A stretch of 42,578 nucleotides of DNA from Candidatus Omnitrophota bacterium (lineage in GTDB: Bacteria; Omnitrophota; Gorgyraeia; Tantalellales; Tantalellaceae): positions 1 through 42,578 of the forward strand of contig JADFYD010000003.1 of NCBI GenBank assembly GCA_015233235.1, written 5' to 3'. Within the stretch, counting starts at the first letter, position 1. Each line of letters starts with the position of its first letter. This document shows positions 1,829 through 34,155 of this stretch, in pieces. Position numbers and translations under genes: made by a program. Under the pieces are notes generated by a model that did no database searches, was not told the origin of the DNA, and saw only the letters and a program-made list of their open reading frames with translations.

Positions 1829-1829
1829 T

Positions 1830-7257: not shown

Positions 7258-7262
7258 GTTTT

Positions 7263-8360: not shown

Positions 8361-8364
8361 TATT

Positions 8365-9459
8365 ATGCGAATATTGCAAAAATCGGTATTTTGGGAATAT
8401 TTCACCGCTTTTATATTTTCGGCGATGCTCCTCATAGTTCTTGGCATCATCGGCGATGTTTTGGGTTTTCTGGACGATATTTTTAAGAACAATATCCCGC
8501 TTGCCAGTGTTTTCAGCTTCTACCTGAATTTTTTGCCGTTTGCTTTTGTGAATATGGTACCGTTCGCGTGTCTTCTGGCTGGCGTGTTCGTTTTTAGTAA
8601 CCTCAGCAAAAATCATGAAGTGGTGGCTATTATCACTAACGGCATAAGCATTTGGTCGGTGGTCAGGCCCATCATGTTCCTGACCTTTATCATATGCCTG
8701 GTAACTTTTATTGTGAACGAAAAAGTCGTACCGTCCACGCTGGATAAAGCCGAACAGATAAAACATCAGGAACTGGAATCGGTGAAATACAAAGCTTCAA
8801 AGACCGTAATACGCAATTTTTCCATTTACGGCGAGGGGGATCTCCTTATTTTCGCGAAAAAATATTATCCTTACGAAAATAAATTGGAAGACGTTATCAT
8901 ATACAAACAAAATGAGCAACAGGTCGTGACATCTAAGATAAACGCGAGAATTTCAGAATGGAACAGGAAGGGGCATTTTTGGATGGCTTTCGATTGTCTG
9001 GTATTCAACCTTGACGAGAACGGCAAATTCGTTGGGGAACCTCAAACTCTGAAAACCATGAAATTACCGGTCAAGGAAACCCCGCTCGAATTTCTTAGGG
9101 GCAAACATGACCCGAAACTCATGAACTACGCGGACTTGAAAAGATACATCATGCTTTTAAGCAAGAATTCCCCTTCTTCCGCAACGCGGCTTATTGTGGA
9201 CCTGAACTATAAAATAGCTTTCCCCTTTACGGCCCTTGTTACGGTTATGATGGGCATACCTTTTTGCATTTCAGTGGGCAGAGTGAACACGCTTGTCGGA
9301 ATGGCAAAAGGCATAGTCTGCGCTTTTACGTATGTTCCCGTCATGGCGGTATGCCTCGCGTTGGGTAAAAGCGGGGTCTTGAACCCGTATCTCGCGTCCT
9401 GGCTTGCCATGGCGGTTTTCGGTCTCGCCGGTATAATACTCATCAGCCGTGTAAGTTAA
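8365..9459 (+). CDS. LptF/LptG-family (YjgP/YjgQ) LPS export permease, second subunit
   Basis: 364 aa with the same architecture as the upstream gene. The start lies 5 nt after the previous stop. Confidence 0.75.
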   Translation: MRILQKSVFWEYFTAFIFSAMLLIVLGIIGDVLGFLDDIFKNNIPLASVFSFYLNFLPFAFVNMVPFACLLAGVFVFSNLSKNHEVVAIITNGISIWSVVRPIMFLTFIICLVTFIVNEKVVPSTLDKAEQIKHQELESVKYKASKTVIRNFSIYGEGDLLIFAKKYYPYENKLEDVIIYKQNEQQVVTSKINARISEWNRKGHFWMAFDCLVFNLDENGKFVGEPQTLKTMKLPVKETPLEFLRGKHDPKLMNYADLKRYIMLLSKNSPSSATRLIVDLNYKIAFPFTALVTVMMGIPFCISVGRVNTLVGMAKGIVCAFTYVPVMAVCLALGKSGVLNPYLASWLAMAVFGLAGIILISRVS

Positions 9460-10127
9460 GTTATTTGGTCTCTTCGGAAAGTTTTTGCGAGCGTTAAACC
9501 GTATACTTTTGTGGCGCCGTTCGTGATGAGCGTTTCGGCGCATGCTTCAAGGGTTGAGCCAGTGGTTATGACGTCATCCACGAGAAGTATGCTTTTGCCG
9601 TCGATGGCACTTCTATCCGGTATTCCAAAACTTCTTTTTAGGTTTTCCATTCTTTCTTTTTTGTTGAGGTACTTTTGGGAGTGTGTGTGCCTTGTCTTTA
9701 TTAAAACTCCGGCAAGAAGCGGCTGTTTAATGATCTCCCGCACTATCCGGGCGAGTATTTCTGCCTGATTAAACCCTCTCTCGAGTAATTGCGCTCGTGA
9801 AATAGGGATAGGAACTATCGCGTCAAAATGCTCAAAGGCCAACGGATGGGCGTCGAGGTTTTGAGTTATAATATGTTCGAAAAAATAGCGGATGGATGCT
9901 TTATTTCGATCCTTCATCTGCAGCACATATTTTTTTATGGGATTCTCATATGGGCAGCATGAACGCACGCTTTCCAGGTTTTCCAAACCTCGTGTTTCGA
10001 TAAAAGTTCTAAAGTCTATTTTCTCCACGCATCCGGCGCAGATGGGGAACGGATTGTCATAAACCGACATTCCGCAACCTCCGCATCTTGATGGAAGAAT
10101 GAAATTTAGCAATTGAGCGACTGTCAT
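9456..10127 (-). CDS. comF: ComF-family protein (amidophosphoribosyltransferase-like, ComFC)
   Basis: 223 aa. N-terminal Cys4 zinc-finger-like CGGCG...CAGC and the C-terminal PRTase motif ILLVDDVITTGST are present. SD GGAGG lies upstream of the ATG. Confidence 0.8.
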   Translation of the reverse strand: MTVAQLLNFILPSRCGGCGMSVYDNPFPICAGCVEKIDFRTFIETRGLENLESVRSCCPYENPIKKYVLQMKDRNKASIRYFFEHIITQNLDAHPLAFEHFDAIVPIPISRAQLLERGFNQAEILARIVREIIKQPLLAGVLIKTRHTHSQKYLNKKERMENLKRSFGIPDRSAIDGKSILLVDDVITTGSTLEACAETLITNGATKVYGLTLAKTFRRDQIT

Positions 10128-10142
10128 GCTACCTCCATTGTA

Positions 10143-10164
10143 CTTTGAACTCTGAACTTTGAAC
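10143..10164 (-). repeat. Heptamer tandem array (GTTCAAA GTTCAGA GTTCAAA on the minus strand) in the comF leader
   Basis: The plus strand reads CTTTGAA CTCTGAA CTTTGAA. The unit and sense orientation relative to the downstream gene match the ahcY array. Confidence 0.8.
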
Positions 10165-10177
10165 TAAACCCCCTACT

Positions 10178-10215
10178 TATATAGACAAAAAAACCGCCCT
10201 GTTTCGTTCAAAAAA
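10178..10215 (-). promoter_or_regulatory. Conserved bipartite motif, copy A (TATATAGACAA-N12-GTTTCGTTCAAAAAA on the plus strand)
   Basis: See copy B. This copy lies in the comF / doxX divergent intergenic region. Confidence 0.55.
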
Positions 10216-10238
10216 TCTGCAAAAAACTCAAAATACCT

Positions 10239-10266
10239 TTGCATTTGAAGTTCAATGGGTTAGAAT
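10239..10266 (+). promoter_or_regulatory. Sigma70-type promoter for doxX
   Basis: TTGCAT (10239-10244), a 16-nt spacer, then TAGAAT (10261-10266). This lies ~30 nt upstream of ATG 10296. Confidence 0.5.
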
Positions 10267-10295
10267 TATAACTGCAAGTGTGGAGGCTACATATC

Positions 10296-10703
10296 ATGAA
10301 AGAAAAAACGGCGAAAGATCTTTCCCTTTTTGTGCTGAGGCTGGGGTTGGGGGCTATTTTTCTGGCCCATGGGGCGCAGAATCTTTTTGGTATGTTCGGA
10401 GGCGTGGGGATAGAGGGCACCACCAAAATGATGGAAAGCTTGGGTTTTTCTTATCCCTACTATTCCGCTATCGTGTGGTCTTGCGCGGAATTTTTCGGCG
10501 GAATGTTTCTTATTATGGGATTTTTCGCCAGAATATCGGCGATTCTTATCGCAGCCCTTCTCGTAGTCAGCATATATAAAATAAATTTTTCCAACGGGTT
10601 TTTTATACAGAACGGAGGTTATGAATTTGATCTTCTTATGATCATAGGTTGCGCCCAGATCGCCTTCATGGGCGGAGGCAACTGGTCGCTTTGGGATCTA
10701 TAA
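10296..10703 (+). CDS. DoxX-family membrane protein
   Basis: LRLGLGAIFLAHGAQNLFG plus four hydrophobic helices typify DoxX. I chose ATG 10296, 9 nt after SD GGAGG (10282-10286). Confidence 0.8.
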   Translation: MKEKTAKDLSLFVLRLGLGAIFLAHGAQNLFGMFGGVGIEGTTKMMESLGFSYPYYSAIVWSCAEFFGGMFLIMGFFARISAILIAALLVVSIYKINFSNGFFIQNGGYEFDLLMIIGCAQIAFMGGGNWSLWDL

Positions 10704-10733
10704 CCCGGGTACGCAAGAGACAGAGGACACAAA

Positions 10734-11591
10734 ATGACGGATAAGACCGATACACGAAGGATTTTCGGCGCGAAAGTGATCATTGGCGTTTTAGCGGCGC
10801 TTGTTCTTGTCATAGGGGTTTTGGCCGCTTTTGTACTGCCCGAAAGAACGACCCCGATACTCATGTACCACTCGATCTCGGGATTCGGGAACGCATCAAC
10901 CACCGTGTCTCCCGAAAACTTCAAAAAGCAGATGGAATTCCTGTATTATCACGATTACAGGGTCATATCCCTGGAGAGCCTTGTGGCGGAGATAAAAAAA
11001 GGACACAGGTACCTGCCGAAGGTGGTCGTGATAACCTTCGACGACGGATACGAGGATAATTTTACCAATGCTTTTCCCGTGCTGGCGAAATACAACATGC
11101 CGGCCACGATATTCATCATAACGGGTTTTGTCGGTACCGATAATGCCGCTCTTGAATGGGATCCGGATAGACAATTCAATGTCCGTAAAAGATATCTGAC
11201 ATGGGAACAGGTCTCACTGATGCACAGGAACGGCCTTACGTTCGGGGCGCATTCGCGGGAGCATGCGTATCTTCCGTCCATTACCGACGACAAAAAACTT
11301 CTGCAGGAAATATTAGGGCCCAAAGCCGACATCAAACTAAAAGTGGGGCTGGACGCGGAATTTTTCTGTTATCCGCTGGGAGGATTTACCGAGAAGGTAA
11401 AAAAAGCCGTTAAAGGCGCAGGGTACACGGCGGCTTTTACCACTAACCGTGGGTATGACCGCACCAATGCGGACCTATATGAACTTAAACGGATAAAAGT
11501 GACTAATTCCGACATGAATAGTCCGTTGCATTTCAGGGCGAAGCTGTCAGGTTTTTATAATTTATTTCGCAGTTCAAAAAAAGGGTCCTAG
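10734..11591 (+). CDS. Polysaccharide deacetylase (NodB homology domain) with N-terminal TM anchor
   Basis: The NodB motifs ITFDDGYEDN and GAHSREH are present. The N-terminal hydrophobic segment is VIIGVLAALVLVIGVLAAFVL. Confidence 0.8.
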   Translation: MTDKTDTRRIFGAKVIIGVLAALVLVIGVLAAFVLPERTTPILMYHSISGFGNASTTVSPENFKKQMEFLYYHDYRVISLESLVAEIKKGHRYLPKVVVITFDDGYEDNFTNAFPVLAKYNMPATIFIITGFVGTDNAALEWDPDRQFNVRKRYLTWEQVSLMHRNGLTFGAHSREHAYLPSITDDKKLLQEILGPKADIKLKVGLDAEFFCYPLGGFTEKVKKAVKGAGYTAAFTTNRGYDRTNADLYELKRIKVTNSDMNSPLHFRAKLSGFYNLFRSSKKGS

Positions 11592-11600
11592 GAGACGTAT

Positions 11601-12890
11601 ATGGAAGGAACGCTGAAAATAGATACGCGTTTTTTGGAAGGTTTCGTTTCGCAAAAAGATCTCGGTGATATTTCTCCGCTTTTGAACGACGCGGAAAAAC
11701 TTCTCGCCGGCGGCAAGGGGCCGGGCAGCGATTTTCTGGGGTGGATGGACCTTCCGGAAAGGCTTTCGGATCGGGAAATAACCGGCGTAGAGAACTCCGC
11801 GAAAAGATTGTCGGGCCAGTCGGACGTTATCGTCGTGATCGGCATCGGCGGATCATATCTGGGAGCTAAAGCCGTGACGGAAATGCTTCTGCCGGATTTC
11901 AAGGATAAAAAAATAGTATTCGCCGGACACCAGATCTCCGGTGAGTATCACAGGGATCTTTTGGATTATCTTAAAGACAGGGAAGTCAGCGTCAATGTGA
12001 TATCAAAATCCGGAACGACGACAGAACCGGCGATAGCCTTCAGGGCCATTATGGACCTCATGAAGAAAAAGTACGGCGAAAATGGGATAAAGGACAGAAT
12101 CGTTTGTACCACCGACAGATCAAAAGGCGCCTTGAGATCGCTCGCCTCCGAGAAGGGCTTTGAAACTTTCATTGTTCCCGATGATGTGGGTGGGCGTTTT
12201 TCAGTGCTTACGCCTGTAGGGCTTTTGCCTATAGCGTGTGCCGGAATAAATATAAAGGATCTCGTGGCGGGTGCCAGGGAGATGCGCCAATTAGTTTCGT
12301 CCGGCCGTGTCGACGGAAATTTGAGCGCCGAATACGCCGCTGTGAGAAATATCCTTTACAGGAAAGGTAAAAAAATAGAGATCATGTCGAATTTTGACCC
12401 GAAAATGCATTTTGTCTCAGAGTGGTGGAAACAGCTTTACGGCGAAAGCGAAGGTAAAAATAAAAAGGGTATATTCCCGGCGGCATGTGATTTCACGACC
12501 GATCTGCATTCCATGGGACAATGGATACAGGACGGAGAAAGGGATATTTTTGAGACATTTTTGATCGAAGAGGTCGAGGATAAAGCGCTTGCCGTCCCAT
12601 CCGACGCGGATGACCTTGATGGCCTGAATTATCTGGCGGGTAAACAGTTTTCTTTTATCAATAAAAAGGCTTACTTGGCCACGGCCGAAGCCCATTTTGA
12701 GGGAGGCGTCCCTAATATCTCGATCTTATTCCCGGAAAAAAGCGCTTTTTTTGCCGGAGAGCTCATATATTTCTTTGAAAAGGCCGTCGCGCTTTCGGCA
12801 TACGCGCTCGGGTCAAACCCGTTCGATCAGCCCGGGGTAGAGTCTTACAAGAAAAAAATGTTCAAACTTTTAGGGAAGGGTCTGTCATAA
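11601..12890 (+). CDS. pgi: Glucose-6-phosphate isomerase (short bacterial type)
   Basis: 429 aa. Motifs present: GIGGSYLGAKA, ISKSGTTTEP, VGGRFSVLTPVGLLP, GESEGK. Confidence 0.9.
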   Translation: MEGTLKIDTRFLEGFVSQKDLGDISPLLNDAEKLLAGGKGPGSDFLGWMDLPERLSDREITGVENSAKRLSGQSDVIVVIGIGGSYLGAKAVTEMLLPDFKDKKIVFAGHQISGEYHRDLLDYLKDREVSVNVISKSGTTTEPAIAFRAIMDLMKKKYGENGIKDRIVCTTDRSKGALRSLASEKGFETFIVPDDVGGRFSVLTPVGLLPIACAGINIKDLVAGAREMRQLVSSGRVDGNLSAEYAAVRNILYRKGKKIEIMSNFDPKMHFVSEWWKQLYGESEGKNKKGIFPAACDFTTDLHSMGQWIQDGERDIFETFLIEEVEDKALAVPSDADDLDGLNYLAGKQFSFINKKAYLATAEAHFEGGVPNISILFPEKSAFFAGELIYFFEKAVALSAYALGSNPFDQPGVESYKKKMFKLLGKGLS

Positions 12891-12946
12891 GTTCATCTAT
12901 CGTAAAACTTATTATTCTCGCAGTAATAGGCTCGGCGCTGGTCGAG

Positions 12947-13822
12947 TTGAAACTCATGGACAAGCATTTTGTCGACAAACTCGGCAAACTGCTGGTGGTT
13001 CTTATCTTCCCGTGCCTCATTGCCCACAGGATAACTTCATCTTTCAGTTTTACCGAGCTTTATTACTGGTGGGCACTGCCGATAGCGGCTGTTGCTTTTT
13101 CGGCGCTGGGTTTATTGTTAGGTTTTTTGTTTTATGGTTTCAGTAAGGACAAAGAAGGGAAAAGGGAATTTTTATGCGCCGCGGCTTTCCAGAACTGCGG
13201 GTACCTTCCGATGAGCGTAATTTTTTTTATGTTCGACGGAGCGGTGCGCGACAAATTCCTCATTATGGTGTTTTTGTATATAATCGGGTTTGACCTTATC
13301 ATGTGGTCGTTCGTGCCGATATTTCTGTCCGGCGGAACAAAATTGAAAGAAGGTTTTAAAAATATATTCAGTCCGCCTGTCGTGGTCACTATTGTTTCAC
13401 TTTTATGGGTATTCTTTTTCGGGAAAGGGCATGTGCCGGATATCGTTATGGACCCCGTCGCGAAGATAGGCGACACCGCCTTTCCCTTGGTTATGATAGT
13501 ACTCGGAGCTTACCTGTCTATTTACAGAGGACATCTTCCGGAAAAGAAAACAGACGTGTTCCTGGTTTTGGTCGTGAGGTTCTTAGCTTTTCCGGCGCTG
13601 GTCTTGCTGGCGATGAAAGTTTTTCCGATGGACGCACATTTGAGGTTTTTTTTGTTCCTTCAGTCGATCATGCCGGTCGCCGTATCGCTTATCATCATCG
13701 GCGCATATACCAACGCGCGCAACAGGTTTTTGAGCAGCGTTATATTCTATTCGCATCTGCTGGGGATATTTCTGATCCCCTTGTGGCTGGAGATCTTTAA
13801 GTGCGCATTTAAGATGAAATAA
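12947..13822 (+). CDS. AEC-family (auxin efflux carrier-like) membrane transporter; the true start is probably upstream of the track start
   Basis: A polytopic membrane protein of AEC length and hydrophobicity pattern. The in-frame upstream extension encodes an apparent TM1 (IVKLIILAVIGSALV) but has no ATG/GTG/TTG (see finding). Confidence 0.7.
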   Translation: MKLMDKHFVDKLGKLLVVLIFPCLIAHRITSSFSFTELYYWWALPIAAVAFSALGLLLGFLFYGFSKDKEGKREFLCAAAFQNCGYLPMSVIFFMFDGAVRDKFLIMVFLYIIGFDLIMWSFVPIFLSGGTKLKEGFKNIFSPPVVVTIVSLLWVFFFGKGHVPDIVMDPVAKIGDTAFPLVMIVLGAYLSIYRGHLPEKKTDVFLVLVVRFLAFPALVLLAMKVFPMDAHLRFFLFLQSIMPVAVSLIIIGAYTNARNRFLSSVIFYSHLLGIFLIPLWLEIFKCAFKMK

Positions 13823-13831
13823 AGGAGAAAT

Positions 13832-16231
13832 ATGGCCAAAAAAAAACTTAAACCGAAGGAACTTAAGAATGTCTGTGACCCGTCGGTTTTTAAGTTCAAG
13901 ACCACCGAGAATTTCAATTTTGGCGTTGAGCCTTTGCATCAGGAACGGGGTGTGAGTTCTATCGATTTCGGGCTGGATATAAAATCGAAAGGCTTCAATG
14001 TTTTCGTATCGGGTCCTTCCGGTACCGGCAGAAATACGCAGGTAAAGAAAGCTGTATACCGCCTGGCTGAAAAACAGAAAACCCCCGATGACTGGGTGTA
14101 TGTGTACAATTTTATACACGAGGACGAACCGATCGCGGTCAGCCTTCCGTCCGGCATGGGAAAAGTGTTCAGGCGTGACATGGAGGAGCTGATATCGGAA
14201 CTTAAGAACGATATACCTAAAGCTTTTGAAAGCGACGATTATGAAAAAAGGAAACACGCGCTCTTGAAAGACTACAAGATGAAAAGGGACCGTGTCCTTC
14301 AGGATGTCGAGGATATCGCGTTCAAAAAAGGTTTTGTGCTTAAGCAGACCGCGACAGGGGTCATCCTTGTGCCTAGGATAAAAGACAGAGCGATGACCAA
14401 CGAGGAGTTTGAGGACCTTCCGGCGGCCGAAAGCGAAAGAATAGAAAAGAAAAAACATAACCTTCACATACAGATCGACCAGGTGCTCGCGGAAATAAGG
14501 GCAATGGAGAAGGACATTAAGGTGAAAGTTAAAGAACTTGAGAAGGCAGTCACTCTTTTTTCGGTCAAGCATACCATCGATGAACTGCGCAAAAAATACA
14601 GATTTTCCGGTGATGTGCTCTTGCACCTGAATCGTGTGCAGGAAGATATCCTTTCCAACATAGACGTGTTCAAGCCCGAAGAAGAAGCGCCGATGCTGCC
14701 GGTACTGGGGGCAAAACCCGCTCAGAGGGAAGATACTTTCAAGAAATATAAAGTGAACCTTCTTGTCGACCGGAGCTTTTCGGAAGGCGCGCCCGTGGTA
14801 ATAGAGTCGAACCCGACTTATTATAATCTGGTCGGCAGGATAGAGTACGTCGCCCAGTTCGGTGCGATGACCACCGATTTTACCATGATCGCTTCCGGGT
14901 CGCTTCACAAAGCGAATGGCGGATACCTGATTCTTCAGGCTGCGGATGTTATGACATCATTTATGGCGTGGGATGCGCTGAAAAGAGTGATACGCAATCA
15001 CCAAATAAAGGTCGAGGACATAAACGAACAGTTCCGCCTTATCTCTACGACGAGCCTGAAGCCCCGTCCCATACCGTGCGATATCAAGATCATCATGGTC
15101 GGTCCCGCATGGATGTACCGGCTGCTCTACATGTATGATGACGATTTTAAGAAAATGTTCAAGGTAAAGGCCGATTTTGAGAATGAGATCGACCGGACGA
15201 GCGAGAAAATAATGAAGTACGCGGCGTTCATAAAGGTCAGGTGCGACGAGGAAAAATTGAGGCATTTTGAAAAAAAGGCGGTCGCGCGCATTGTCGATTA
15301 CGGTTCGCGGTTGGTCGATGATCAAAACAAACTGAGCGCCCGCTTCATGCCAGTTGCGGATATTCTGCGCGAGGCCGACTATTGGGCCGAAAAAGAGGGC
15401 GCGAAATACGTCAGATACGAACATGTGGAAAAAGCTCTGAAGGAAAAGGTGTACCGCTCGGACCTTGTGGACCAGAAAATAACCGAGCTTATCGAAGAGA
15501 ACGTGATAATGATAGATGTGGAAGGTGCCGCGGTGGGACAGATTAACGGTTTGGCCGTATACAATATGGGCGATTTTTCTTTCGGTAAGCCATCGAGAAT
15601 AACCGTATCAAGTTTCATGGGAAAATCCGGTGTTATCGATATCGAACGGCAGGTTAAATTGGGCGGGAGCCTCCATTCTAAAGGCGTACTGATCCTCGGA
15701 GGGTATATGGGTGAAAAATACGCGCAGGAATATCCCTTATCCCTGAGCGCGCATATTTGTTTTGAACAAACCTACGACGGCGTTGACGGGGACTCCGCCT
15801 CAAGTACCGAAGCGTACTGTTTGATCTCTTCGCTCGCGGGTGTTCCGCTCAATCAGGGCATTGCCGTGACAGGTTCGATGAATCAGCACGGCGGCATACA
15901 GCCCATAGGCGGAGTTAACGAAAAGATAGAGGGATTTTACCATGTTTGCAAGGTAAAAGGTCTTACCGGGAAACAGGGAGTTATAATACCGTATCAAAAT
16001 ACCAGGCATCTGATGCTTAAAGATGAAGTGGTCGAAGCAGTGAAGGACGGTAAATTCCATATTTGGTCGGTTTCGACGGTGGATGAGGGCATTGAAATAC
16101 TGACAAGTAAAAAAGCCGGAACAAAAGGGAAGAACGGTAAATACCCCAAAGGCAGTATTAACTATCTGGTGAGCAAAAAATTGCAGGCATATGCCGAGTA
16201 TGAGTCAAAATCAAAAAAAACTAAAAAGTAA
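13832..16231 (+). CDS. Lon-like protease with AAA-like domain carrying a long helical insertion (LonC/AAA_32-like)
   Basis: 799 aa. The P-loop-like motif is GPSGTGRNT, with Arg where the Walker A Lys is expected. A coiled-coil-rich insertion is present. The C-terminal Lon protease domain carries DGDSASSTEAYCLISSLAG (Ser) and IGGVNEKIEGF (Lys). Confidence 0.85.
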   Translation: MAKKKLKPKELKNVCDPSVFKFKTTENFNFGVEPLHQERGVSSIDFGLDIKSKGFNVFVSGPSGTGRNTQVKKAVYRLAEKQKTPDDWVYVYNFIHEDEPIAVSLPSGMGKVFRRDMEELISELKNDIPKAFESDDYEKRKHALLKDYKMKRDRVLQDVEDIAFKKGFVLKQTATGVILVPRIKDRAMTNEEFEDLPAAESERIEKKKHNLHIQIDQVLAEIRAMEKDIKVKVKELEKAVTLFSVKHTIDELRKKYRFSGDVLLHLNRVQEDILSNIDVFKPEEEAPMLPVLGAKPAQREDTFKKYKVNLLVDRSFSEGAPVVIESNPTYYNLVGRIEYVAQFGAMTTDFTMIASGSLHKANGGYLILQAADVMTSFMAWDALKRVIRNHQIKVEDINEQFRLISTTSLKPRPIPCDIKIIMVGPAWMYRLLYMYDDDFKKMFKVKADFENEIDRTSEKIMKYAAFIKVRCDEEKLRHFEKKAVARIVDYGSRLVDDQNKLSARFMPVADILREADYWAEKEGAKYVRYEHVEKALKEKVYRSDLVDQKITELIEENVIMIDVEGAAVGQINGLAVYNMGDFSFGKPSRITVSSFMGKSGVIDIERQVKLGGSLHSKGVLILGGYMGEKYAQEYPLSLSAHICFEQTYDGVDGDSASSTEAYCLISSLAGVPLNQGIAVTGSMNQHGGIQPIGGVNEKIEGFYHVCKVKGLTGKQGVIIPYQNTRHLMLKDEVVEAVKDGKFHIWSVSTVDEGIEILTSKKAGTKGKNGKYPKGSINYLVSKKLQAYAEYESKSKKTKK

Positions 16232-21380: not shown

Positions 21381-22073
21381 ATGATACGTAAATATTTAAA
21401 TTTTTCTTCCAGACTTAGGACCGCCTATAAGAACCTTAAGAAGTCTTATAAGGAAGTCAAAGATTCATATGCGGAGATGATATTCCGTATGGCCCTTGTG
21501 GCTGAGCTTAAGGACGATACGACAGGAACACACCTTGTCAGGATCGCGGATTACAGCACGGAACTAGCCGCGGGGCTGGGTCTCGCTCATAAGACCATCG
21601 AATTGATCAAATATGCCAGCCCTATGCACGACATAGGTAAACTGGTTATTACCGATAACATTCTCAAAAAACCCGGCAAACTTACTTCGGAAGAAAGAAT
21701 GATCATGGAGAAACACACCATTTTTGGTGCGGATATTTTTGAAGGGAGTAAGGCGGAACTGCTTATAATGGCGCAAGATATCTGCATTACGCATCATGAG
21801 AAATATGACGGCAGCGGGTATCCCTACAAAAAAAAGGGCGAGGAGATATCTCTTGCAGGCAGGATCGTTGCTGTCGCCGACGTATTTGACGCACTTACAA
21901 ACGCCAGGCCATACAAGAATTCCATTGATTTTGATGTTGCGGTGGATATGCTTAGTGAAGAGTCCGGAAAACATTTTGATCCTAAAGTTATTGCTGCCTT
22001 TATGAAGAACATCCCAAAGATCCGCAAAATATGGCAAGCCACAAAGGACATAGATAGCTTTGTAAATACATGA
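21381..22073 (+). CDS. HD-GYP domain protein (predicted c-di-GMP phosphodiesterase), stand-alone
   Basis: 230 aa. HD motifs GTHLVRIADY and PMHDIGK, and the GYP motif HHEKYDGSGYPYK, are present. There is no receiver or sensor domain. The start lies 4 nt after the STAS stop. Confidence 0.85.
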   Translation: MIRKYLNFSSRLRTAYKNLKKSYKEVKDSYAEMIFRMALVAELKDDTTGTHLVRIADYSTELAAGLGLAHKTIELIKYASPMHDIGKLVITDNILKKPGKLTSEERMIMEKHTIFGADIFEGSKAELLIMAQDICITHHEKYDGSGYPYKKKGEEISLAGRIVAVADVFDALTNARPYKNSIDFDVAVDMLSEESGKHFDPKVIAAFMKNIPKIRKIWQATKDIDSFVNT

Positions 22074-24969: not shown

Positions 24970-25845
24970 ATGTTCCCGCGTGACATGATGAAAAACTCAT
25001 TTTTCGGAATATTGGCCTTTCTGTTTTTTATTTCTATCGCTCCAGTCGTTTCGGCAGAGACGACGAGCGCCTTTGTATTCTCATTCAAGGGCGATGTGAA
25101 AATAGTCCCCGTCGGCAGTAACATAGGCGTCAAGTGCGAAAAAGGCATGGTAGTAAACCCCAACGATTGGATCAAGACCGGACCCGCCTCGGAAGTCACA
25201 TTGTCCTTCGATGAAAACGCAGATAATGTTATCAAGGTTCAGGAGAGCAGCCTTATCATACTTAAAATGGACGGCTACGTAAAAATGCAGCTTCTGAAAG
25301 GAGAACTATATGCCATTCTTGAAGACGTGAAAAAAGACGAAGTATTCAGAGTGATGACACCGTCGGTCGTAGCCGAGTCGACAAGCGCGGGTTGGGGTGT
25401 TTCCGGGGACGGTACTTATACAAAAACAGTGGTGATAGACGGCCAGGCGTATGTATGCGGTATTAACAAGGATGGTACGCCGAGTGAGAAAAAATACCAA
25501 GTGGGTTCCGGCTATCAACGGAAAACCGCGCTTTACAAAGACCCCGGGGCCCAGGAAGAGGCGCCGCAGGAAGTTGTGAGCTGGTTTAAAGAGCAGGTCA
25601 TCGCACATCACCTGGAAAAAGAAATTTATAAGAAAACGAAATCGGAAAACTCAGCGAAAGTTTCCGGCGGGGATGTGATCATCGCTGACGGTGAGAAGGT
25701 GAACATAGTGGACTATATCTACAAAAAAAGGCTGGAAAATATGTCTAGGGCCGGAACGTCGGCAGAAGGGAAATCACCGAGTGGCGGTAGCGAGACACCC
25801 GACAAGAGCGGTCAGGAGACTAAAAAGACAACAAAGGCAGTCTAG
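24970..25845 (+). CDS. Secreted FecR-domain protein
   Basis: A signal-peptide-like N-terminus (FFGILAFLFFISIAPVVSA) is followed by a FecR-like beta region (FKGDVKIV...DWIKTGPASEVTLSF). The start is ambiguous among ATG 24970, 24985 and 24988. The track start 24907 overlaps the previous gene. Confidence 0.7.
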   Translation: MFPRDMMKNSFFGILAFLFFISIAPVVSAETTSAFVFSFKGDVKIVPVGSNIGVKCEKGMVVNPNDWIKTGPASEVTLSFDENADNVIKVQESSLIILKMDGYVKMQLLKGELYAILEDVKKDEVFRVMTPSVVAESTSAGWGVSGDGTYTKTVVIDGQAYVCGINKDGTPSEKKYQVGSGYQRKTALYKDPGAQEEAPQEVVSWFKEQVIAHHLEKEIYKKTKSENSAKVSGGDVIIADGEKVNIVDYIYKKRLENMSRAGTSAEGKSPSGGSETPDKSGQETKKTTKAV

Positions 25846-25846
25846 C

Positions 25847-27682
25847 ATGAAAAACAAGAATGTAAGCATACGAATAAAACTTTTGGCGACAACGATATCC
25901 GTACTGTTCCTGGTTGTCGCCGCAACTGCCGCAGTGAATATTACGCAATTCAAGGAAGTCTGCATTGAGGCTCTTTTTGAACGCGCCAGGGCCGATGCTC
26001 AGGATCTACGCGAAGCTGTTCAACAGGGCCTGCAATATTTTTCGTTGGATAGTTTTTCCGATATGACGCAGTTATTAAACCTGCATCTCCATAAAAAATT
26101 CAGCTACTCGTATATCGCCGACAATAAGAACATTATCCTATATCACAGCGACGGAAAAACCAAGGGTGTAAAGCTTGACCCCAGGATATACGAGAAACTT
26201 AAATTCAGCGATAAAGTGAACAGCGTGATCATCCCTACCGGGAAATATTATGAGTGCGTAATACCAATAGTTTCCGACTTTGATGTTAAAGGGACGATAC
26301 ATATCGGCATACAGAATAAGACCGTCGATGACATGGCGCTGGGCCTTATCGTCAAGAATGTGGGGATACTGATAATAGCTCTTCTTGTCGCGGTTATGTG
26401 CCTTTTATATCTTTTGACTAAAAATTTCACAAAACCTATTTCGGAACTGGCGAAAAAAGTTGACTATATCAATTCCAGGTTCAATCTGCAAAAACAGGTT
26501 AAGGAGGCTGCGGGAGATGAGCTCAAGGAGTTTGGTGTTTCATTTGAGCTTATGACAAAGGAGCTCGAGGAAAAAACGGTTTCAAGGGATTATGTGAAGA
26601 ATATTATCGAGAACATGAACGACGCGCTCTTTGTGTTAAGCGTTACGGGAAAAATAATCACTCTCAACAGGGCCGGTAAAGTTTTGCTGAACAGCACCGA
26701 AGAAAAGATCCTCGGTAGATCTTTCGGCGATATTGTTACCGACGGTGAATATATTTTCAAAGAAAAAGGTATAATTGATTTTTCAAGGTCCGGCGAGAGC
26801 AGGAATTTCGAAACAAAAATCAAAGCCGCCGGCGGGCAGCTGGTGCCGGTTCTCCTGAGTACGGCTGAAATATCCGGAGAAAAAACCAGTGAAAAAAACA
26901 TAATTTGCGCGGTGAAGGATATTACGGATATTAAAAAAGCGCAAATGTTGCTGCAAAGGGCACATGATGAGCTCGAAAAAAGAGTTGAAGAGAGAACGGC
27001 TGAACTTGCGGACGCCAACATGAAGTTGAACCTGGATATAATCCAGCGTCAGAGGATAGAAAAACAGCTTCGTAAGAGCTACGAGGAAATGGAAATGACT
27101 TTCAGGGGTAGTGTTCAGGCGCTGGCGAAAGCGGTAGAATCAAGGGACCCGTATACCGCCGGCCACCAGGAAAGGGTAGCTGCGCTTGCCTGTGCCATTG
27201 CGAGAGAAATGAATTTGAAAGAATCCACCGTGAATGAGATCTATATGTCAGGAGTCAGCCATGATATAGGAAAAATAGGGATTCCGATGGAGATCTTGAA
27301 TAAAAAAGAACGGTTGACCGACGAGGAATTCGCGAAGATCAAAACCCATCCGCAAGTCGGTTATGATATTTTGAAGGCGATAGAGTTTCCCTGGCCGTTA
27401 GCCAAAATTGTGCTTCAGCATCACGAGCGTATGGACGGTTCCGGGTATCCTAATGGTTTGGTCAATGAGGACATACTTTTAGAAGCCAAGATCATTGCGG
27501 TGGCGGATGTGGTAGAAGCCATGGCATTTGCAAGACCCTACAGAGGCGCTCTGGGGGTAGACAGAGCCTTAGAAGAGATCATGAAAAATAAAGGCAAACT
27601 CTATGATCAGGCTGTAGCGGACGCATGCGAGGCGGTTATAAAAAATAAAAAGTTTGAATTTAGCATAGAGAAGACGGAGTGA
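25847..27682 (+). CDS. Membrane sensor: periplasmic domain-HAMP-PAS-coiled coil-HD-GYP phosphodiesterase
   Basis: I chose ATG 25847, 2 nt after the previous stop. Two TM segments flank a ~150-aa extracytoplasmic region. The PAS-like segment is IIENMNDALFVLSVTGKIITLNRAGKVLL. HD-GYP motifs are HQERVAALACAIA, SHDIGK and HHERMDGSGYPNG. Confidence 0.85.
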   Translation: MKNKNVSIRIKLLATTISVLFLVVAATAAVNITQFKEVCIEALFERARADAQDLREAVQQGLQYFSLDSFSDMTQLLNLHLHKKFSYSYIADNKNIILYHSDGKTKGVKLDPRIYEKLKFSDKVNSVIIPTGKYYECVIPIVSDFDVKGTIHIGIQNKTVDDMALGLIVKNVGILIIALLVAVMCLLYLLTKNFTKPISELAKKVDYINSRFNLQKQVKEAAGDELKEFGVSFELMTKELEEKTVSRDYVKNIIENMNDALFVLSVTGKIITLNRAGKVLLNSTEEKILGRSFGDIVTDGEYIFKEKGIIDFSRSGESRNFETKIKAAGGQLVPVLLSTAEISGEKTSEKNIICAVKDITDIKKAQMLLQRAHDELEKRVEERTAELADANMKLNLDIIQRQRIEKQLRKSYEEMEMTFRGSVQALAKAVESRDPYTAGHQERVAALACAIAREMNLKESTVNEIYMSGVSHDIGKIGIPMEILNKKERLTDEEFAKIKTHPQVGYDILKAIEFPWPLAKIVLQHHERMDGSGYPNGLVNEDILLEAKIIAVADVVEAMAFARPYRGALGVDRALEEIMKNKGKLYDQAVADACEAVIKNKKFEFSIEKTE

Positions 27683-30111: not shown

Positions 30112-30140
30112 TTGACTAAAAACCTGCAAAGCGATAAAAT
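30112..30140 (+). promoter_or_regulatory. Sigma70-type promoter for the giant acetate-kinase gene
   Basis: TTGACT (30112-30117), an exact 17-nt spacer, then TAAAAT (30135-30140). SD GAAGGA lies 5 nt before ATG 30200. Confidence 0.6.
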
Positions 30141-30199
30141 AACCTAAATTTGTAATGGCTAAACATTAACGCAACATACAAAACTCCAGAAGGAAAAAT

Positions 30200-33100
30200 A
30201 TGTATCGATGTTCTTTTGGTCGTGTGTTTTCAACATTTTTGTTAGTATTACTTTTTTTGTCAAATACCTTTTCAAGTGTTTCTGCTCAGGATTTTCTAGC
30301 GGTACCACTTGCTAGCTCACCGGGTCTTGTTGATAGGGGGACACGCGAGGCTGTTATCCAAACCGGGGACCCCGGCGCCATTGGTAATGGTAAACCGCTG
30401 ATAAATCTCGTAAAAAACGGTAAAAAAGGCCTGCCTAAACGTATACCCGTAAAGTCCGGAAGTAAAAATGTGGCGGATGCTGTACGACAAACCAGGGAGG
30501 CGTTGGATCTTGCCATTAAACTAGCCGTAAAAAAATCCGGCGCAGTCAGACCCGGACAGGCGATACTCGCCAAGGAGGCACTGGATAATCTGTACGAATT
30601 TGAGAGATCCTTCGCGAAAAAACTTTATCTCTACAACGCGGCAGATACCATAACAGGCCCGGAAGACTATTTGCTGGGGTTTAATTATGGCGGCAAAATA
30701 GGTCTTTCAGTAGAACTTATAGACATTTTGTACAATATCTCACCTTTAAGGCTTGCTCAGTATGTTTATCACGAATGTGTACCGGAGAGGTCAATAATAT
30801 TTCCTTCCGATGGTGCCGCTAATCTTGACAGGTTGGAACATCAGCGTATCTATAAGGAATTACAATCCGACATATTCGGCGTAGAAGAGGTCTTGGAGCT
30901 AAAAAAAGATTTAAGAAGCTTTATTGAACCATGTATTCTGATACTCAACTGCGGAAGCTCTACAGTGAAATATCAGGTTCTGAACGCCAGGACCTGGCAA
31001 GTGGTCGTCAAAGGCAATAAAGGTACTGCGGGACGAGGACATGCTGCTGTGCTAAAAGAAATATTGGAATCGCTTAAGGCGCGTCCGATCGCTGTCGGGC
31101 ACAGAGTGGTGCACGGGGGCAACAAGTACAGCAAATCCGTTCTGATAGATGGCGAAGTTGAGGCTGAAATAAAGCGTCTTTTTGAGCTTGCTCCGCTTCA
31201 TAATCCTCCGGCCGATGAGGGGATACAGGCCGCGAAAGCGTGTCTTCCCGGTGTGCCGCAGATCGCCGTTTTTGATACGGCTTTTCACCAAACGATGCCC
31301 ATTGAGGACTTTCTTTACGCAGTACCGCTCAAATTTTGTGAAAAGTATGGTCTTCGAAGATTCGGTTTTCATGGAACAAGTCATAGGTATGTTTACGCGA
31401 AAGCCGTGGATTGGCTTAAAAAAATGAAAAAGGGGCCGTACAAAAACGGTAAAGCAAATCGCTTGCCTAATGTCATAACGGTACACTTAGGTAACGGATC
31501 CAGCATCAGCGCCGTAAGGAACGGCAAGTGCATATTTAACAGTATGGGGCTTACGCCGCTTCAGGGGCTTATCATGGGTACTAGATCCGGGGACATTGAC
31601 CCCGCGCTTTTGACCAAAATAGTGAACGACGGGAAATTCGGACTTACGATACAAGACGTTGACCAGATACTCAACAAGGATAGCGGCATGCTGGGCGTGT
31701 CCGGTATGAATAGTGACTGTTGGACACTGGAATCCGCCGCATACGGGTATAGTGCCAGGTTTTTGCTTAAACAGTTCACCGATTCTTCGGAAAAAGGGAC
31801 TTTCAGGGAAATGCTTGCGGCGCTCAAGGGGCAGGGTCTTGAGGCCCATGATATCAAAACTTGGCGAGATTTTATCGGATATATTGAAAATCAAACATCA
31901 AAAGAAGAAGTTCGAATGCGTACGGTGCGGATGCTTGCGATGGAATATGTGCCGAACATGTTCTTTATTGAGGATCTGGCCTCTCTTGCGGATGGTAAAC
32001 TTAAAAGTTATTTGGATGGATATTTGTCCGGCAATACATATTCGAAGATCAAAAAAGACCTGGGCAAAAATGATATCAAAACGGGTCTGAATTATATGAA
32101 TTTTCTTATTGAAGAAGCGGGAAAAGGCGGATACGCACCAACGGACGTGGTTGACCTTTTCATGGTACTGGCCGCGAACGGGCACAACGTGCAAAAACTT
32201 TACGATAAAATGTTGCTGAGTGCAATGGGAGGGATAAAGACAGCGCTGGAGGAATTCGCGCCTCAGGTCGAAAGTACTAAAATACCAAAAGGGATCTATG
32301 TTTATTTGCTCCAAAACTCGGATCGACTCGGTTATGCACGAGAGGACGTCATGGACATATTTTTTGAGAACATATTTGACGGTGGTAACATGAAAGCTGA
32401 TCTCGCGCTAAGGATGTTTATAAGCAGGGTCATGGATTATATCCACTTGTGTTACGGAAAGCTTGGTACGTGCGACGCGATCGTGCTGACGGGAGGGATA
32501 GGCGAGACTAAGAACAAGGTTAGCGGACGGATAATCGAAAAAATACAGTATTTTATCAGAACTCAGATAAAACCTGACAAGGCTCCGTCTGTCCGGCAAA
32601 TACCCACTAACGAAGAACTTGTTATCGCGCAGGACACTATGAGCATAGTTAGAGCCGAAAAGGATAAAATAACGGCTGAGAAGGTAAAGTTTCGTAAGAG
32701 CTTCGATGTGTATGAGGGCGAAGCAAGGACTAATTTGCTTACCGATACGGATATCGAGTCCGGATGCGCACGGTTCAGGACAAATCTGGAAAATATGCTC
32801 TCGAAGGATCCGGAAAAAATATTTTTGTTTGCTCTTGATACTGACATCGGGTCTTTTGAGGGCGCGGAGATCATAAAATTATTCAAAATAATCGACAGCC
32901 TAGGCAATGCAACAAAAAACGGCGGAGAAAAAATGTACCCCAACCTCAGGGTCGTACGGGGCAGCGCGAGTGACAATACCGACCGGGGGTTAAAATCTGT
33001 TATTGGGAAGATCAAGTCTCGCGAGGGAAATTTTCTGAAAGATGAGAATATATTGTTACTGGTCAACGCTAAAAATATCAGGGAGTTTGACGCATTGTCC

Positions 33101-33385
33101 GGGCGGGCGCTCATTACCGCAATAAACGACTCTGGCCTCGACAATTTCAATTATATCCCTCTGGTGGAAATGGCGGCCATCGCATTTATGTCGGAGATCG
33201 GGACCGATATCGATAGTCTGAAAAATCTTATCGACCTTATATCAAAAGAACCCGTTGATGTCGTCGCCTTACGGGAAATGTTAAAGAATCGCATTATTAC
33301 CATAATCCCAAAACCCGCTCCTCTTGGGTATGAAGGCCTCAGGCAGCTATACGAACGCATGCAAGAGGTCTACTTCCGCGCATAA
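30200..33385 (+). CDS. 1061-aa chimeric acetate/propionate-kinase-family protein
   Basis: Module layout:
- Signal peptide MYRCSFGRVFSTFLLVLLFLSNTFSSVSA/QD.
- Unknown N-domain, aa 30-244.
- Ack core, aa ~245-512 and ~733-818.
- ~220-aa insertion, aa ~513-732.
- Unknown C-domain, aa ~819-1061.
Ack motifs present: ILILNCGSSTVKY, VGHRVVHGG, PLHNP, IAVFDTAFHQTMP, FGFHGTSHRY, VHLGNGSS, MGLTPLQGLIMGTRSGDIDP, IVLTGGIGE, IPTNEELVIA. Confidence 0.85.
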   Translation: MYRCSFGRVFSTFLLVLLFLSNTFSSVSAQDFLAVPLASSPGLVDRGTREAVIQTGDPGAIGNGKPLINLVKNGKKGLPKRIPVKSGSKNVADAVRQTREALDLAIKLAVKKSGAVRPGQAILAKEALDNLYEFERSFAKKLYLYNAADTITGPEDYLLGFNYGGKIGLSVELIDILYNISPLRLAQYVYHECVPERSIIFPSDGAANLDRLEHQRIYKELQSDIFGVEEVLELKKDLRSFIEPCILILNCGSSTVKYQVLNARTWQVVVKGNKGTAGRGHAAVLKEILESLKARPIAVGHRVVHGGNKYSKSVLIDGEVEAEIKRLFELAPLHNPPADEGIQAAKACLPGVPQIAVFDTAFHQTMPIEDFLYAVPLKFCEKYGLRRFGFHGTSHRYVYAKAVDWLKKMKKGPYKNGKANRLPNVITVHLGNGSSISAVRNGKCIFNSMGLTPLQGLIMGTRSGDIDPALLTKIVNDGKFGLTIQDVDQILNKDSGMLGVSGMNSDCWTLESAAYGYSARFLLKQFTDSSEKGTFREMLAALKGQGLEAHDIKTWRDFIGYIENQTSKEEVRMRTVRMLAMEYVPNMFFIEDLASLADGKLKSYLDGYLSGNTYSKIKKDLGKNDIKTGLNYMNFLIEEAGKGGYAPTDVVDLFMVLAANGHNVQKLYDKMLLSAMGGIKTALEEFAPQVESTKIPKGIYVYLLQNSDRLGYAREDVMDIFFENIFDGGNMKADLALRMFISRVMDYIHLCYGKLGTCDAIVLTGGIGETKNKVSGRIIEKIQYFIRTQIKPDKAPSVRQIPTNEELVIAQDTMSIVRAEKDKITAEKVKFRKSFDVYEGEARTNLLTDTDIESGCARFRTNLENMLSKDPEKIFLFALDTDIGSFEGAEIIKLFKIIDSLGNATKNGGEKMYPNLRVVRGSASDNTDRGLKSVIGKIKSREGNFLKDENILLLVNAKNIREFDALSGRALITAINDSGLDNFNYIPLVEMAAIAFMSEIGTDIDSLKNLIDLISKEPVDVVALREMLKNRIITIIPKPAPLGYEGLRQLYERMQEVYFRA

Positions 33386-33407: not shown

Positions 33408-33454
33408 GTAGGGCACCCTTAAGGGTGCCCTACGATTGTTGATAACTCCATAAA
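33408..33454 (+). repeat. REP-like unit 1 (GTAG-headed palindrome + conserved tail)
   Basis: GTAGGGCACCC-TTAA-GGGTGCCCTAC (33408-33433) is followed by GATTGTTGATAACTCCATAAA. Confidence 0.8.
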
Positions 33455-33487: not shown

Positions 33488-33534
33488 GTAGCGCACCTTT
33501 AAGGGTGCGCTACTATTGTTCATAACTCCATAAA
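33488..33534 (+). repeat. REP-like unit 2
   Basis: GTAGCGCACCT-TTAA-GGGTGCGCTAC (33488-33513, one G-T pair) is followed by TATTGTTCATAACTCCATAAA. Confidence 0.8.
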
Positions 33535-33574: not shown

Positions 33575-34057
33575 TTAAAACTCCAATTTGTCAATATGTA
33601 AAACGGAACAGTTTTTTTTATAATAGTGGTGATAGCTGGAATGCGGATAGTGATTTAAGTCCATGACTAGCTTATGTTTTACTGGATTGTTGTGAATGTA
33701 TTCCATTTTGTTCAATAACATTGTCTCACTTCGAATGCCTTCATCATAAAATCGTTTTTGCCATACAGGACCAATAATATTGTTCATTCTATTAAACCTT
33801 CTTGCAAGATCACCTTTGATCATTTGCATAATATACGATAAGTTATATTTACCGATGGGATGAATCAGAATATGGAGATGTTCCGGTAAAAGGCAATAAG
33901 CATATACTTTGTAGTCTAATGTTATTTTGAAGTACTCAATTGTTAGTAAAAGCAGGTTTACCGCCTTTTCGGAGACAAAAATATTTGTTCTATCGTTTGT
34001 CACGGTTGTTACAAAATAAATCGCTTTATCCTCAAAATGGCGTTTAATAGTACCCAT
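33575..34057 (-). CDS. REP-associated tyrosine transposase (RAYT; IS200/IS605-like Y1 HUH transposase)
   Basis: 160 aa. The HUH motif is in PEHLHILIHP, and the catalytic-Tyr motif is MEYIHNNPVKHKLV. The gene is flanked by GTAG-headed palindromes. By eye it is much more AT-rich than its neighbours. Confidence 0.85.
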   Translation of the reverse strand: MGTIKRHFEDKAIYFVTTVTNDRTNIFVSEKAVNLLLLTIEYFKITLDYKVYAYCLLPEHLHILIHPIGKYNLSYIMQMIKGDLARRFNRMNNIIGPVWQKRFYDEGIRSETMLLNKMEYIHNNPVKHKLVMDLNHYPHSSYHHYYKKNCSVLHIDKLEF

Positions 34058-34109: not shown

Positions 34110-34155
34110 GTAGAGCACCCTTAAGGGTGCTCTACGATTGTTCATAACTTCGTAA
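34110..34155 (+). repeat. REP-like unit 3
   Basis: GTAGAGCACCC-TTAA-GGGTGCTCTAC (34110-34135) is followed by GATTGTTCATAACTTCGTAA. Confidence 0.8.

Follow-up and report, generated by a model that had tools for sequence, protein, structure and literature searches.

We identified in a 42,578-nucleotide stretch of DNA from a Candidatus Omnitrophota bacterium (assembly GCA_015233235.1, contig JADFYD010000003.1, positions 1 to 42,578; hereafter the window) a gene for a 1061-amino acid (aa) acetate kinase that begins with a predicted Sec-type signal peptide and carries its catalytic core between two conserved domains, here termed the N-domain and the C-domain. An initial annotation of the window had treated this protein as a singular oddity. 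It is instead one member of an Omnitrophota-wide architecture, in which the N- and C-domains are a generic cassette around interchangeable enzymes of the cytoplasmic type and not accessories of acetate kinase. The interpretation that we favor, with a probability of about one half, is that the protein is an acetate (or propionate) kinase of the ATP/ADP type, competent for catalysis, that would be exported through Sec and placed or assembled by the cassette at an extracytoplasmic site.

The only Pfam domain detected in the protein was Acetate_kinase (PF00871), which matched in three stretches (E 4e-100; 335.6 bits versus a cutoff of 22). The protein also exceeded the curated cutoff of the NCBIfam model for the acetate/propionate kinase family (TIGR00016; 332.4 versus 293.4 bits), and none of the acetate- or propionate-specific equivalog models in the NCBIfam scan reached its cutoff. 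The core, which is approximately 47-52% identical to bacterial acetate kinases, retains every one of the motifs listed in the initial annotation (LNCGSS at residue 249, GHRVVHGG at 300, LHNP at 333, VFDTAFH at 357, FHGTSH at 390, HLGNG at 429, GTRSGD at 460, GGIGE at 765 and IPTNEE at 801). To assign residue equivalents we aligned the protein to the acetate kinase of Methanosarcina thermophila (PDB 1G99; Mt numbering). The alignment bore out the conservation of the catalytic residues, as N250, R302, H334, D359, H391, N432, R462 and E805 correspond to Mt N7, R91, H123, D148, H180, N211, R241 and E384, respectively. Further equivalents are K257 (Mt K14), G460 (G239), D506 (D283) and G766/I767 (G331/I332). 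Residues V304, L333, F390 and P453 occupy the positions of Mt V93, L122, F179 and P232, which we take from the M. thermophila literature to be those of the acetate pocket.

In the adenosine pocket (Mt D283, R285, G331, I332 and N335), residues D506, G766 and I767 are conserved and R285 and N335 are replaced by W508 and T770, respectively. Tryptophan can stack on adenine, and W508 could keep the stacking. Together with the activity retained by R285A, R285L and R285K variants of acetate kinase (Ingram-Smith et al., PMC4390882), this makes the kinase most probably active and of the ATP/ADP type. Between Mt A291 (aa 514), where the alignment to 1G99 breaks off, and Mt K293 (aa 728), where it restarts, lies an insertion of 213 residues that begins six residues past W508, directly after the D506-C507-W508 loop of the adenosine pocket. 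A second insertion, of 10 aa, lies at Mt196/197. The initial annotation had described the larger insertion as approximately 220 aa built of four to five repeats of a helical module. The insertion itself stands, as does one pair of repeats (residues 643-665 and 710-727, GGYAPTDVVDLF... and LGYAREDVMDIF...) that scored 44-48 versus shuffled maxima of 27 +/- 4, but the remaining proposed copies had marginal scores. A pattern scan of JGI metagenomes retrieved no relatives of the 213-aa insertion and no second assembly of it. A helical insertion by the adenine pocket, combined with the R285W and N335T replacements, would mean that the active site has been elaborated on its nucleotide side in a lineage-specific way.

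The evidence for a cassette comes from an exhaustive HMMER search of 1.84 billion (1.84e9) representative proteins with the C-domain profile. The search matched 200 proteins (clusters) of 102 to 4735 aa at E<=1e-3, with 141 at E<=1e-10 and 105 at E<=1e-30. When the C-domain alignment was used in a word-indexed homologue search there were no matches, which we take to reflect a failure of sensitivity and not an absence of homologues. Among database proteins, the nearest to the 1061-aa protein are not acetate kinases but "hypothetical proteins" from Candidatus Omnitrophota. Further, blastp and hidden Markov model (HMM) searches recovered the N- and C-domains in Omnitrophota proteins that have no acetate kinase and whose middles are unrelated to each other. 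All of the members with an organism name are Candidatus Omnitrophota/Omnitrophica, the sole other label being "uncultured Planctomycetia" on two GTDB metagenome-assembled genomes (MAGs). We counted architectures among 150 listed of the 200 C-domain matches. The C-domain ended 8 or fewer residues from the C-terminus in each of the 143 members that reach the end of the profile, with Ala as the last residue in 125 of them and Val in 15. At least one N-domain, and up to four, accompanied it in 75 of the 113 full-length members. Acetate kinase was the cargo in two of the 150 representatives, the 1061-aa protein and protein P0003.

A Pfam census of 48 and 26 members illustrates how varied the cargo is. 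Central carbon metabolism was represented by triosephosphate isomerase (TIM), GAPDH, PGK, a phosphoglycerate mutase-type phosphatase, enolase, class II aldolase (FBA), three kinds of FBPase, PFK, PfkB and transaldolase. Other metabolic cargo included Glu/Leu/Phe/Val (ELFV) dehydrogenase, mannitol dehydrogenase, NAD-epimerase, inositol monophosphatase, HAD and ARMT1 phosphatases and S-adenosylmethionine (SAM) methyltransferases. The census also recovered macro domains, RNA 3'-phosphate cyclase, helicase domains, radical SAM, DAO, PAS/HATPase, TPR/HEAT and a GH5 cellulase, and the cargo of P0038 combined LmbE with a NagB-like domain. The span from the last N-domain to the C-domain ranged from 29 to 1925 aa and, given the shortest of these, nearly cargo-less proteins of N- and C-domain exist. 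Because the flanking domains are common to approximately 200 clusters and so rarely enclose an acetate kinase, and because the core is an orthodox member of TIGR00016, the proposal of a new ASKHA subfamily fails. As a separate observation, the window encodes at positions 587-1828 (+) a CofD-family protein with two N-terminal hydrophobic helices before the CofD domain; the cassette protein P0145 (2150 aa) from another Omnitrophota MAG is annotated with a CofD domain as its cargo.

Both flanking domains, which the initial annotation had placed at aa 30-244 and in the ~240 aa that follow the IPTNEE end of the core and had left unassigned, proved to be conserved modules (aa 33-244 and the ~226 aa of 836-1061) without a match in Pfam, NCBIfam or PDB. 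Every invariant residue of the family N-domain motifs (GAIGNG, EDYLLGFN, RLAQYxYHECVPE and HR) is present in the acetate kinase protein. The invariant polar cluster of the N-domain (E126, R155, Q158, H162-E163-(C/S)164-x-P-E167 and H185-R186, in domain numbering) has the look of a site for catalysis or metal binding, and the alternation of Cys and Ser at position 164 is suggestive of a nucleophile. We rejected a zincin-like metallopeptidase because the motif reads HECVPE and not HEXXH, no peptidase family emerged in the Pfam scans, and a Foldseek search of PDB with the N-domain model gave no match at E<0.38. The C-domain conserves PNL, (I/L)DDS, YxPxxE and an Arg. AlphaFold2 models built from the family alignments predicted an N-domain (pLDDT 82, pTM 0.80) with a long helical hairpin, a three-stranded sheet and four more helices, and an alpha/beta C-domain (pLDDT 84, pTM 0.80) in which five strands alternate with helices, eight in all. 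Foldseek retrieved no fold match for the C-domain model (best E=0.055 in PDB and 0.048 in BFVD, TM-score ~0.3), and its top match, an HGPRT/PRTase fold, was rejected at a TM-score of 0.3. Across the PDB searches with both models and the BFVD search with the C-domain model, no match had E<0.04 or a TM-score >0.35. We also rejected the idea that the C-domain motifs hhhD/E-T-D-I-G and hhIDDS are HAD-like, Toprim-like or MIDAS-like, as those abundant folds were not among the Foldseek hits. PDB sequences searched with the profiles of both domains returned noise only (NusA, E=0.45; eS24, E=0.15), and Pfam and NCBIfam scans at E<=10, outside the acetate kinase region and across every aligned N- and C-domain sequence, identified no recurrent family. 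Nor did we find a description of the cassette in Pfam, NCBIfam, PDB or the searchable Omnitrophota literature that would make the architecture an already described family.

The leader recurs with the cassette and opens nearly all of the complete members. In the acetate kinase protein it comprises an n-region of charge +2 (MYRCSFGR), the h-region VFSTFLLVLLFLSNTF and a VSA/Q site that fits the -3/-1 rule, a heuristic reading that agrees with the Sec-type signal peptide of the initial annotation. A strongly hydrophobic 11-mer was present within the first 60 residues in 101 of 130 family members (those of at least 400 aa with a Met start). The three long leaderless members that we inspected were all cut by contig ends. 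Ahead of their hydrophobic core the family leaders have a mean net charge of +2.7, and the 20 residues behind it have one of -0.9, a pattern that predicts an N-in/C-out orientation with the bulk of the protein outside. AxA-like or small-residue sites are found in other members as well (GYA/LAPS, SFA/YENL, VYA/G and VWA/DPD). In a hydropathy scan of the first ~60 residues the N-terminal segment was the sole hydrophobic segment identified. The leader is followed in the family by a motif with the consensus (D/N)xL(A/S)(P/A)SL(V/I)(S/T)D (LAPSLVSD-like), whose equivalent in a distant subfamily that has no detectable N-domain is ...LQPxTL. The first ~32 residues of the N-domain model, which bear this motif, are disordered, consistent with a disordered post-leader stretch that carries a conserved motif.

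The start codon of the gene bears directly on the leader. We confirmed the open reading frame (ORF) of 1061 aa on the + strand, and its ATG at 30200 is supported by a Shine-Dalgarno sequence and by the leader kept in homologues. The public gene call (P0001, 1042 aa) begins instead at a TTG (codon 20, position 30257), 19 codons inside the ORF, and deletes the signal peptide. Automated annotation may, in this manner, systematically hide the leaders of the cassette family. Other enzymes encoded in the window (PGI, MetK, AhcY, PtsI and a nucleotidyltransferase) have no leader; hence, the leader is specific to this gene and not a genome-wide artefact of start calling. A cytoplasmic isoform translated from an internal TTG (codon 232) is not favored, because GAGG lies just 2 nt upstream of it; the poor spacing is as the initial annotation had cautioned for codon ~231. 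That annotation had also credited the gene with a near-consensus promoter and Shine-Dalgarno sequence of its own. The latter held (GAAGGA, 5 nt ahead of the ATG). The TTGACT-17-TAAAAT element is present too, but the match carries no statistical weight because our scan of the region found 5 promoter-like sites when 7.4 were expected in shuffled sequence.

A search for recurrence of the full architecture, suggested in the initial annotation, found the order N-domain, acetate kinase, C-domain again in P0003, which is encoded in an independent NCBI MAG (GCA_015231715.1). The P0003 core is the sister of the core described here in a neighbor-joining tree (52% identity). It also has an insertion at Mt196/197, plus a different insertion elsewhere. 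The sister relationship and the shared insertion indicate that the architecture was inherited. The next-nearest acetate kinase cores (P0008, P0010, P0011, P0012 and P0014; 48-51% identity) reside in leader-bearing fusions of 1400-1800 aa with PTA, 2-hydroxyacid dehydrogenase, ELFV dehydrogenase or HATPase/HEAT. P0011 and P0012 also share a similar post-leader motif (NLSIWLASD and TLAPY) and a C-terminus ending in ...SA. All five fusions differ, however, in having no N-domain and in a C-domain that was either not detected or matched marginally. The last ~75 residues of P0011 and P0012, both fusions of acetate kinase and PTA, gave a marginal match to the C-domain (HMM E ~0.01-0.04, hhalign probability 4%).

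The architecture that emerges comprises what would be a cleavable Sec signal peptide, an LAxxLxS(D)-like motif, at least one N-domain of ~200 aa, the cargo and an alpha/beta C-domain of ~225 aa. We infer that the leader would send the unfolded chain through Sec and be cleaved from it. The motif, the N-domain and the C-domain would then act together, whatever the cargo, to place, anchor or assemble the enzyme outside of the cytoplasm, be it in the periplasm, on the cell surface or where a host or prey cell is contacted. There the kinase would interconvert acetyl-phosphate and ADP with acetate and ATP. An addressing or assembly device is suggested because the leader, motif and C-domain stay constant while the cargo changes. 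These constant modules, along with the charge pattern and the cleavage-type sites, favor an exported enzyme placed by the cassette. Among the possibilities raised in the initial annotation, an exported or compartment-targeted enzyme appears most consistent with a leader that is conserved across the family. Glycolytic domains have similarly been predicted to be extracellular in giant proteins of Omnitrophota (10.1101/2023.11.21.568195), and 94% of the long proteins of the phylum have a signal peptide or transmembrane helices (10.64898/2026.06.07.730766). Export would also suit the predatory or parasitic way of life proposed for Omnitrophota, and some family members have giant genes or a type II secretion/type IV pilus cluster as neighbors.

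Several points weigh against export, the strongest of which is biochemical. The cargo of the family (Radical_SAM, DAO, GAPDH, helicases and others) needs ATP, NAD(P), SAM, FAD or Fe-S clusters. An ordinary periplasm is expected to offer none of these, and a chain exported by Sec is unfolded and carries no cofactor. Nor would there be an obvious supply of ADP or acetyl-phosphate for an acetate kinase outside of the cytoplasm. Foldseek and Pfam scans recognized no kinship of the cassette domains to sorting, anchoring or secretion domains, and it is from the architecture alone that a role for the cassette is deduced. Eight genomic contexts, the window among them, had no neighbor in common that could, for example, be a dedicated transporter. 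Finally, the analysis covered one 43-kb contig of a genome that may also encode a canonical cytoplasmic acetate kinase elsewhere.

The cofactor demand of the cargo would be met if the protein remained in the cytoplasm. The N-terminal segment would then be an uncleaved anchor and the protein part of a membrane-tethered metabolon, in which the N- and C-domains would oligomerize different cassette enzymes into an assembly for glycolysis and fermentation with substrate channelling. We consider this unlikely, even though most of the cargo is made of central-carbon enzymes dependent on cytoplasmic cofactors such as ATP and NAD. In its favor, many Omnitrophota are predicted to obtain their ATP mainly through acetate kinase (Ack), Pta and glycolysis (PMC10066038), and West-Roberts et al. 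cautioned that the prediction of extracellular glycolytic domains could be a topology error (10.1101/2023.11.21.568195). However, leaders with charges of +2.7 before and -0.9 after the core predict an N-in/C-out topology, and retention of the bulk of the protein in the cytoplasm contradicts the positive-inside rule. Most members also have small-residue -3/-1 sites after the h-region, and ordinary cytoplasmic enzymes without a leader, PGI included, are encoded in the same window.

The genomic surroundings of other cassette genes raise the prospect of a role in attack. At one of the loci of P0006 and P0007, which have two N-domains each, the cassette gene lies between an upstream giant ORF (>11,846 aa) and a downstream gene for a 2868-aa protein with phosphoglucomutase domains; at the other, a giant ORF (>5,338 aa) sits at the contig edge, likewise with the 2868-aa protein. 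Neither the giant nor the 2868-aa neighbors matched the N- or C-domain in the portion available. A further locus, in an NCBI Omnitrophota MAG, encodes a 3599-aa DnaJ-containing protein that ends in a C-domain (positions 1-9940 of that locus) and, 60 nt after it, P0002 (1721 aa; 10001-15166) with four N-domains and one C-domain. One cassette gene neighbors a T2SSE/T2SSF/pilin cluster (type II secretion system [T2SS]/type IV pilus), and others are among ordinary genes. Scans of GTDB and JGI with the domain alignments retrieved 6 and 9 loci, respectively, too few for a neighborhood census. It is conceivable, yet less likely still than a tethered metabolon, that the cassette mediates secretion (for example, via the T2SS- or type IV pilus-like systems that abound in the phylum) or surface display after Sec export of an effector directed at a host or prey, whose metabolites and cofactors the cargo would act on. 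ATP could, for instance, be made there and harvested by the parasite. The host cytoplasm would meet the cofactor needs of the cargo, Omnitrophota have been proposed to be predators or parasites with ATP/ADP translocases in some classes (PMC10066038), and some of the giant genes that cassette genes abut are implicated in host attack. On the other hand, linkage to a secretion system is not conserved across the contexts, Pfam and lenient scans detected no known effector-delivery domain, no genes for secretion lie close to the ORF in the window, and the idea is entirely inferential.

There is only a slim chance that the kinase module is a pseudoenzyme or scaffold that lost catalysis through the insertion and the changes in the adenosine pocket and now has a structural or ligand-binding function. 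R285W, N335T and the 213 residues beside the adenine pocket could be read in this way, and the Asn337Glu variant of the E. coli enzyme has a Km for ATP raised >45-fold (PMC4390882). Yet the residues for phosphoryl transfer and those of the acetate pocket are all conserved, the positions of G331 and I332 hold the ATP-type residues, R285 variants are active (PMC4390882), and the TIGR00016 score is above the curated cutoff. The stacking that Trp allows on adenine is a further point against a loss of function. An assembly chimera or mis-called ORF, for which the lack of an independent assembly of the 213-aa insertion and the different start of the database gene call P0001 could be argued, is very unlikely, as the 1061 codons are continuous in frame, the acetate kinase alignment picks up exactly after the insertion, the GC, GC3 and codon usage of every module match those of the other genes in the window (cosine 0.82-0.93), the order of the three modules recurs in the independent MAG of P0003, and the N- and C-modules are found in ~200 clusters.

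The coordinates of the gene, its modules and the repeats downstream are collected in Table 1. The upstream neighbor encodes a membrane/TPR protein. Downstream are an IS200-like Y1 transposase gene and then ComM, YraN, PolX and LigA. As the initial annotation had noted, no pta or other acyl-phosphate gene adjoins the ORF in the window, and the same is true of a tdc or pdu context. LptF/G is encoded elsewhere in the window and implies an outer membrane. The first of three REP-like palindromes is the hairpin located just past the stop codon of the acetate kinase gene. In a region upstream of the acetate kinase gene that is rich in signalling genes and has no evident link to it, two HD-GYP-type (HD_5) proteins are encoded within 6 kb (21381-22073 and 25781-27682, +), one of them with sCache and PAS sensor domains; a FecR-domain protein and a TPR protein with a double PDZ are encoded between them.

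Table 1. Features of the acetate kinase gene and its surroundings (positions in the window; Mt, M. thermophila numbering).
Feature	Position	Strand	Remarks
Promoter-like TTGACT-17-TAAAAT	30112..30140	+	Within the 96-bp intergenic gap; 10/12 positions matched
Shine-Dalgarno GAAGGA	30189..30194	+	5 nt ahead of the ATG; read from the sequence
CDS	30200..33385	+	ATG start, stop included, 1061 aa; same product as database protein P0001 except for the start codon
Sec-type signal peptide (predicted)	30200..30286	+	aa 1-29: MYRCSFGR / VFSTFLLVLLFLSNTF / SSVSA, then Q
Post-signal motif FLAVPLASSP	30293..30322	+	Counterpart of the family consensus; context VSA/QDFLAVPLASS; pLDDT <50 in the AlphaFold model
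N-domain	30296..30931	+	aa 33-244; HMM E=2e-71; motifs GAIGNG, EDYLLGFN, RLAQYVYHECVPE and the His of the family DHR motif (EHQR here)
Acetate kinase core, N-terminal part	30932..31741	+	aa 245-514, Mt ~2-291; profile matches and 1G99 alignment
Lineage-specific insertion, 213 aa	31742..32380	+	aa 515-727; break in the 1G99 alignment
Acetate kinase core, C-terminal part	32381..32659	+	aa 728-820, Mt 293-399; holds the GGIGE ADENOSINE motif and IPTNEE (E384 equivalent)
C-domain	32705..33382	+	aa 836-1061 of 1061; HMM E=7e-83; protein ends ...VYFRA
GC-rich hairpin, 11-bp stem	33408..33433	+	23 nt past the stop; may act as a terminator; 1 of 3 REP-like palindromes
REP-like palindromes, 26 nt, GC-rich (GTAGGGCACCCTTAAGGGTGCCCTAC)	33408-33433, 33488-33513, 34110-34135		0-3 mismatches; none expected by chance
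IS200-like Y1 transposase gene (PF01797)	33575-34057	-	Flanked by palindromes in a REP/RAYT-type arrangement

Omnitrophota are uncultured, ultra-small and probably predatory or parasitic bacteria. An ATP-forming enzyme outside of the cytoplasm would, if export is true, bear directly on the ways in which such nanobacteria exploit a host; were export refuted, the topology predictions for the phylum would prove systematically misleading and a membrane-tethered metabolon would be indicated instead. We propose, tentatively and with the odds against it, that the N-motif/N-domain and the C-domain are the address label of an unrecognized Omnitrophota system for sorting or assembly that would shift a large share of central carbon and energy metabolism to sites outside the cytoplasm. 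Glycolysis, gluconeogenesis, the acetate kinase step and glutamate dehydrogenase would then be relocated to a periplasmic or surface compartment or to the host cell, as a bacterial counterpart of glycosome targeting or an arsenal of "metabolic effectors." The giant proteins of 10,000 to >100,000 residues, in which export signals and glycolytic enzymes are puzzlingly combined, are experimentally intractable, but the cassette family presents the same paradox at ~0.5-2 kaa and with a single, assayable cargo. Its two conserved, unannotated domains are handles for searches. The 1061-aa acetate kinase is, moreover, a practical test case, with a simple activity assay, a leader that can be tested with reporters, and N- and C-domains that can be expressed separately.

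The enzyme shares with the canonical acetate and propionate kinases (AckA, TdcD and PduW; TIGR00016, PF00871; 1G99/1TUY) the ASKHA core, the catalytic set, the acetate-pocket residues and the G331/I332 ADENOSINE motif of the ATP type. It departs from the ~400-aa, soluble, cytoplasmic and single-domain norm in its 1061 aa, its predicted signal peptide and its conserved additional domains at both termini, as well as in the 213-aa insertion after LOOP4, the 10 aa at Mt196/197, and the Trp and Thr at the positions of R285 and N335. The giant Omnitrophota proteins ("Archaeovorins," West-Roberts et al., 2023) and those in the 2026 catalogue of long proteins belong to the same phylum, have signal peptides or transmembrane segments at the front and, as the cassette does, embed enzymes of the cytoplasmic type (TIM, PGI, FBPase, PGM and FBA) that are predicted to be extracytoplasmic. 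Some cassette genes adjoin giant genes, and at least one protein of 3599 aa ends in a C-domain. Archaeovorins, however, have tens of thousands of residues, many transmembrane segments and HEAT/GT/TPR arrays, whereas the acetate kinase protein has ~1 kaa and a single cargo. The pair of N- and C-domains is not described in the giant-protein papers, and the cassette does not require proteins of at least 30,000 aa. The N/C cassette appears to be undescribed; the broader occurrence of metabolic enzymes with export signals in Omnitrophota has already been reported in preprints.

The cassette seems to work most like a tagged-enzyme display or sorting system. The dockerin/cohesin pairs of cellulosomes, the cargo of the type IX secretion system (T9SS) with its C-terminal domain (CTD), autotransporters and the PTS1/PTS2 targeting of glycosomes follow the same logic, in which varied enzymes share a terminal module and an export signal. 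We looked for the defining features of T9SS, autotransporter and dockerin cargo and of Archaeovorins, and the protein had those of none. Specifically, Pfam, NCBIfam and Foldseek gave no sequence or fold match to the T9SS CTD (TIGR04183/PF18962), a C-terminal beta-barrel or dockerin repeats. The tag of the cassette is, by contrast, bipartite (N plus C), and its C-domain is an alpha/beta module of ~225 aa rather than a beta-sandwich CTD, a beta-barrel or a dockerin. The closest analogy is the glycosome, whose glycolytic enzymes share a targeting tag.

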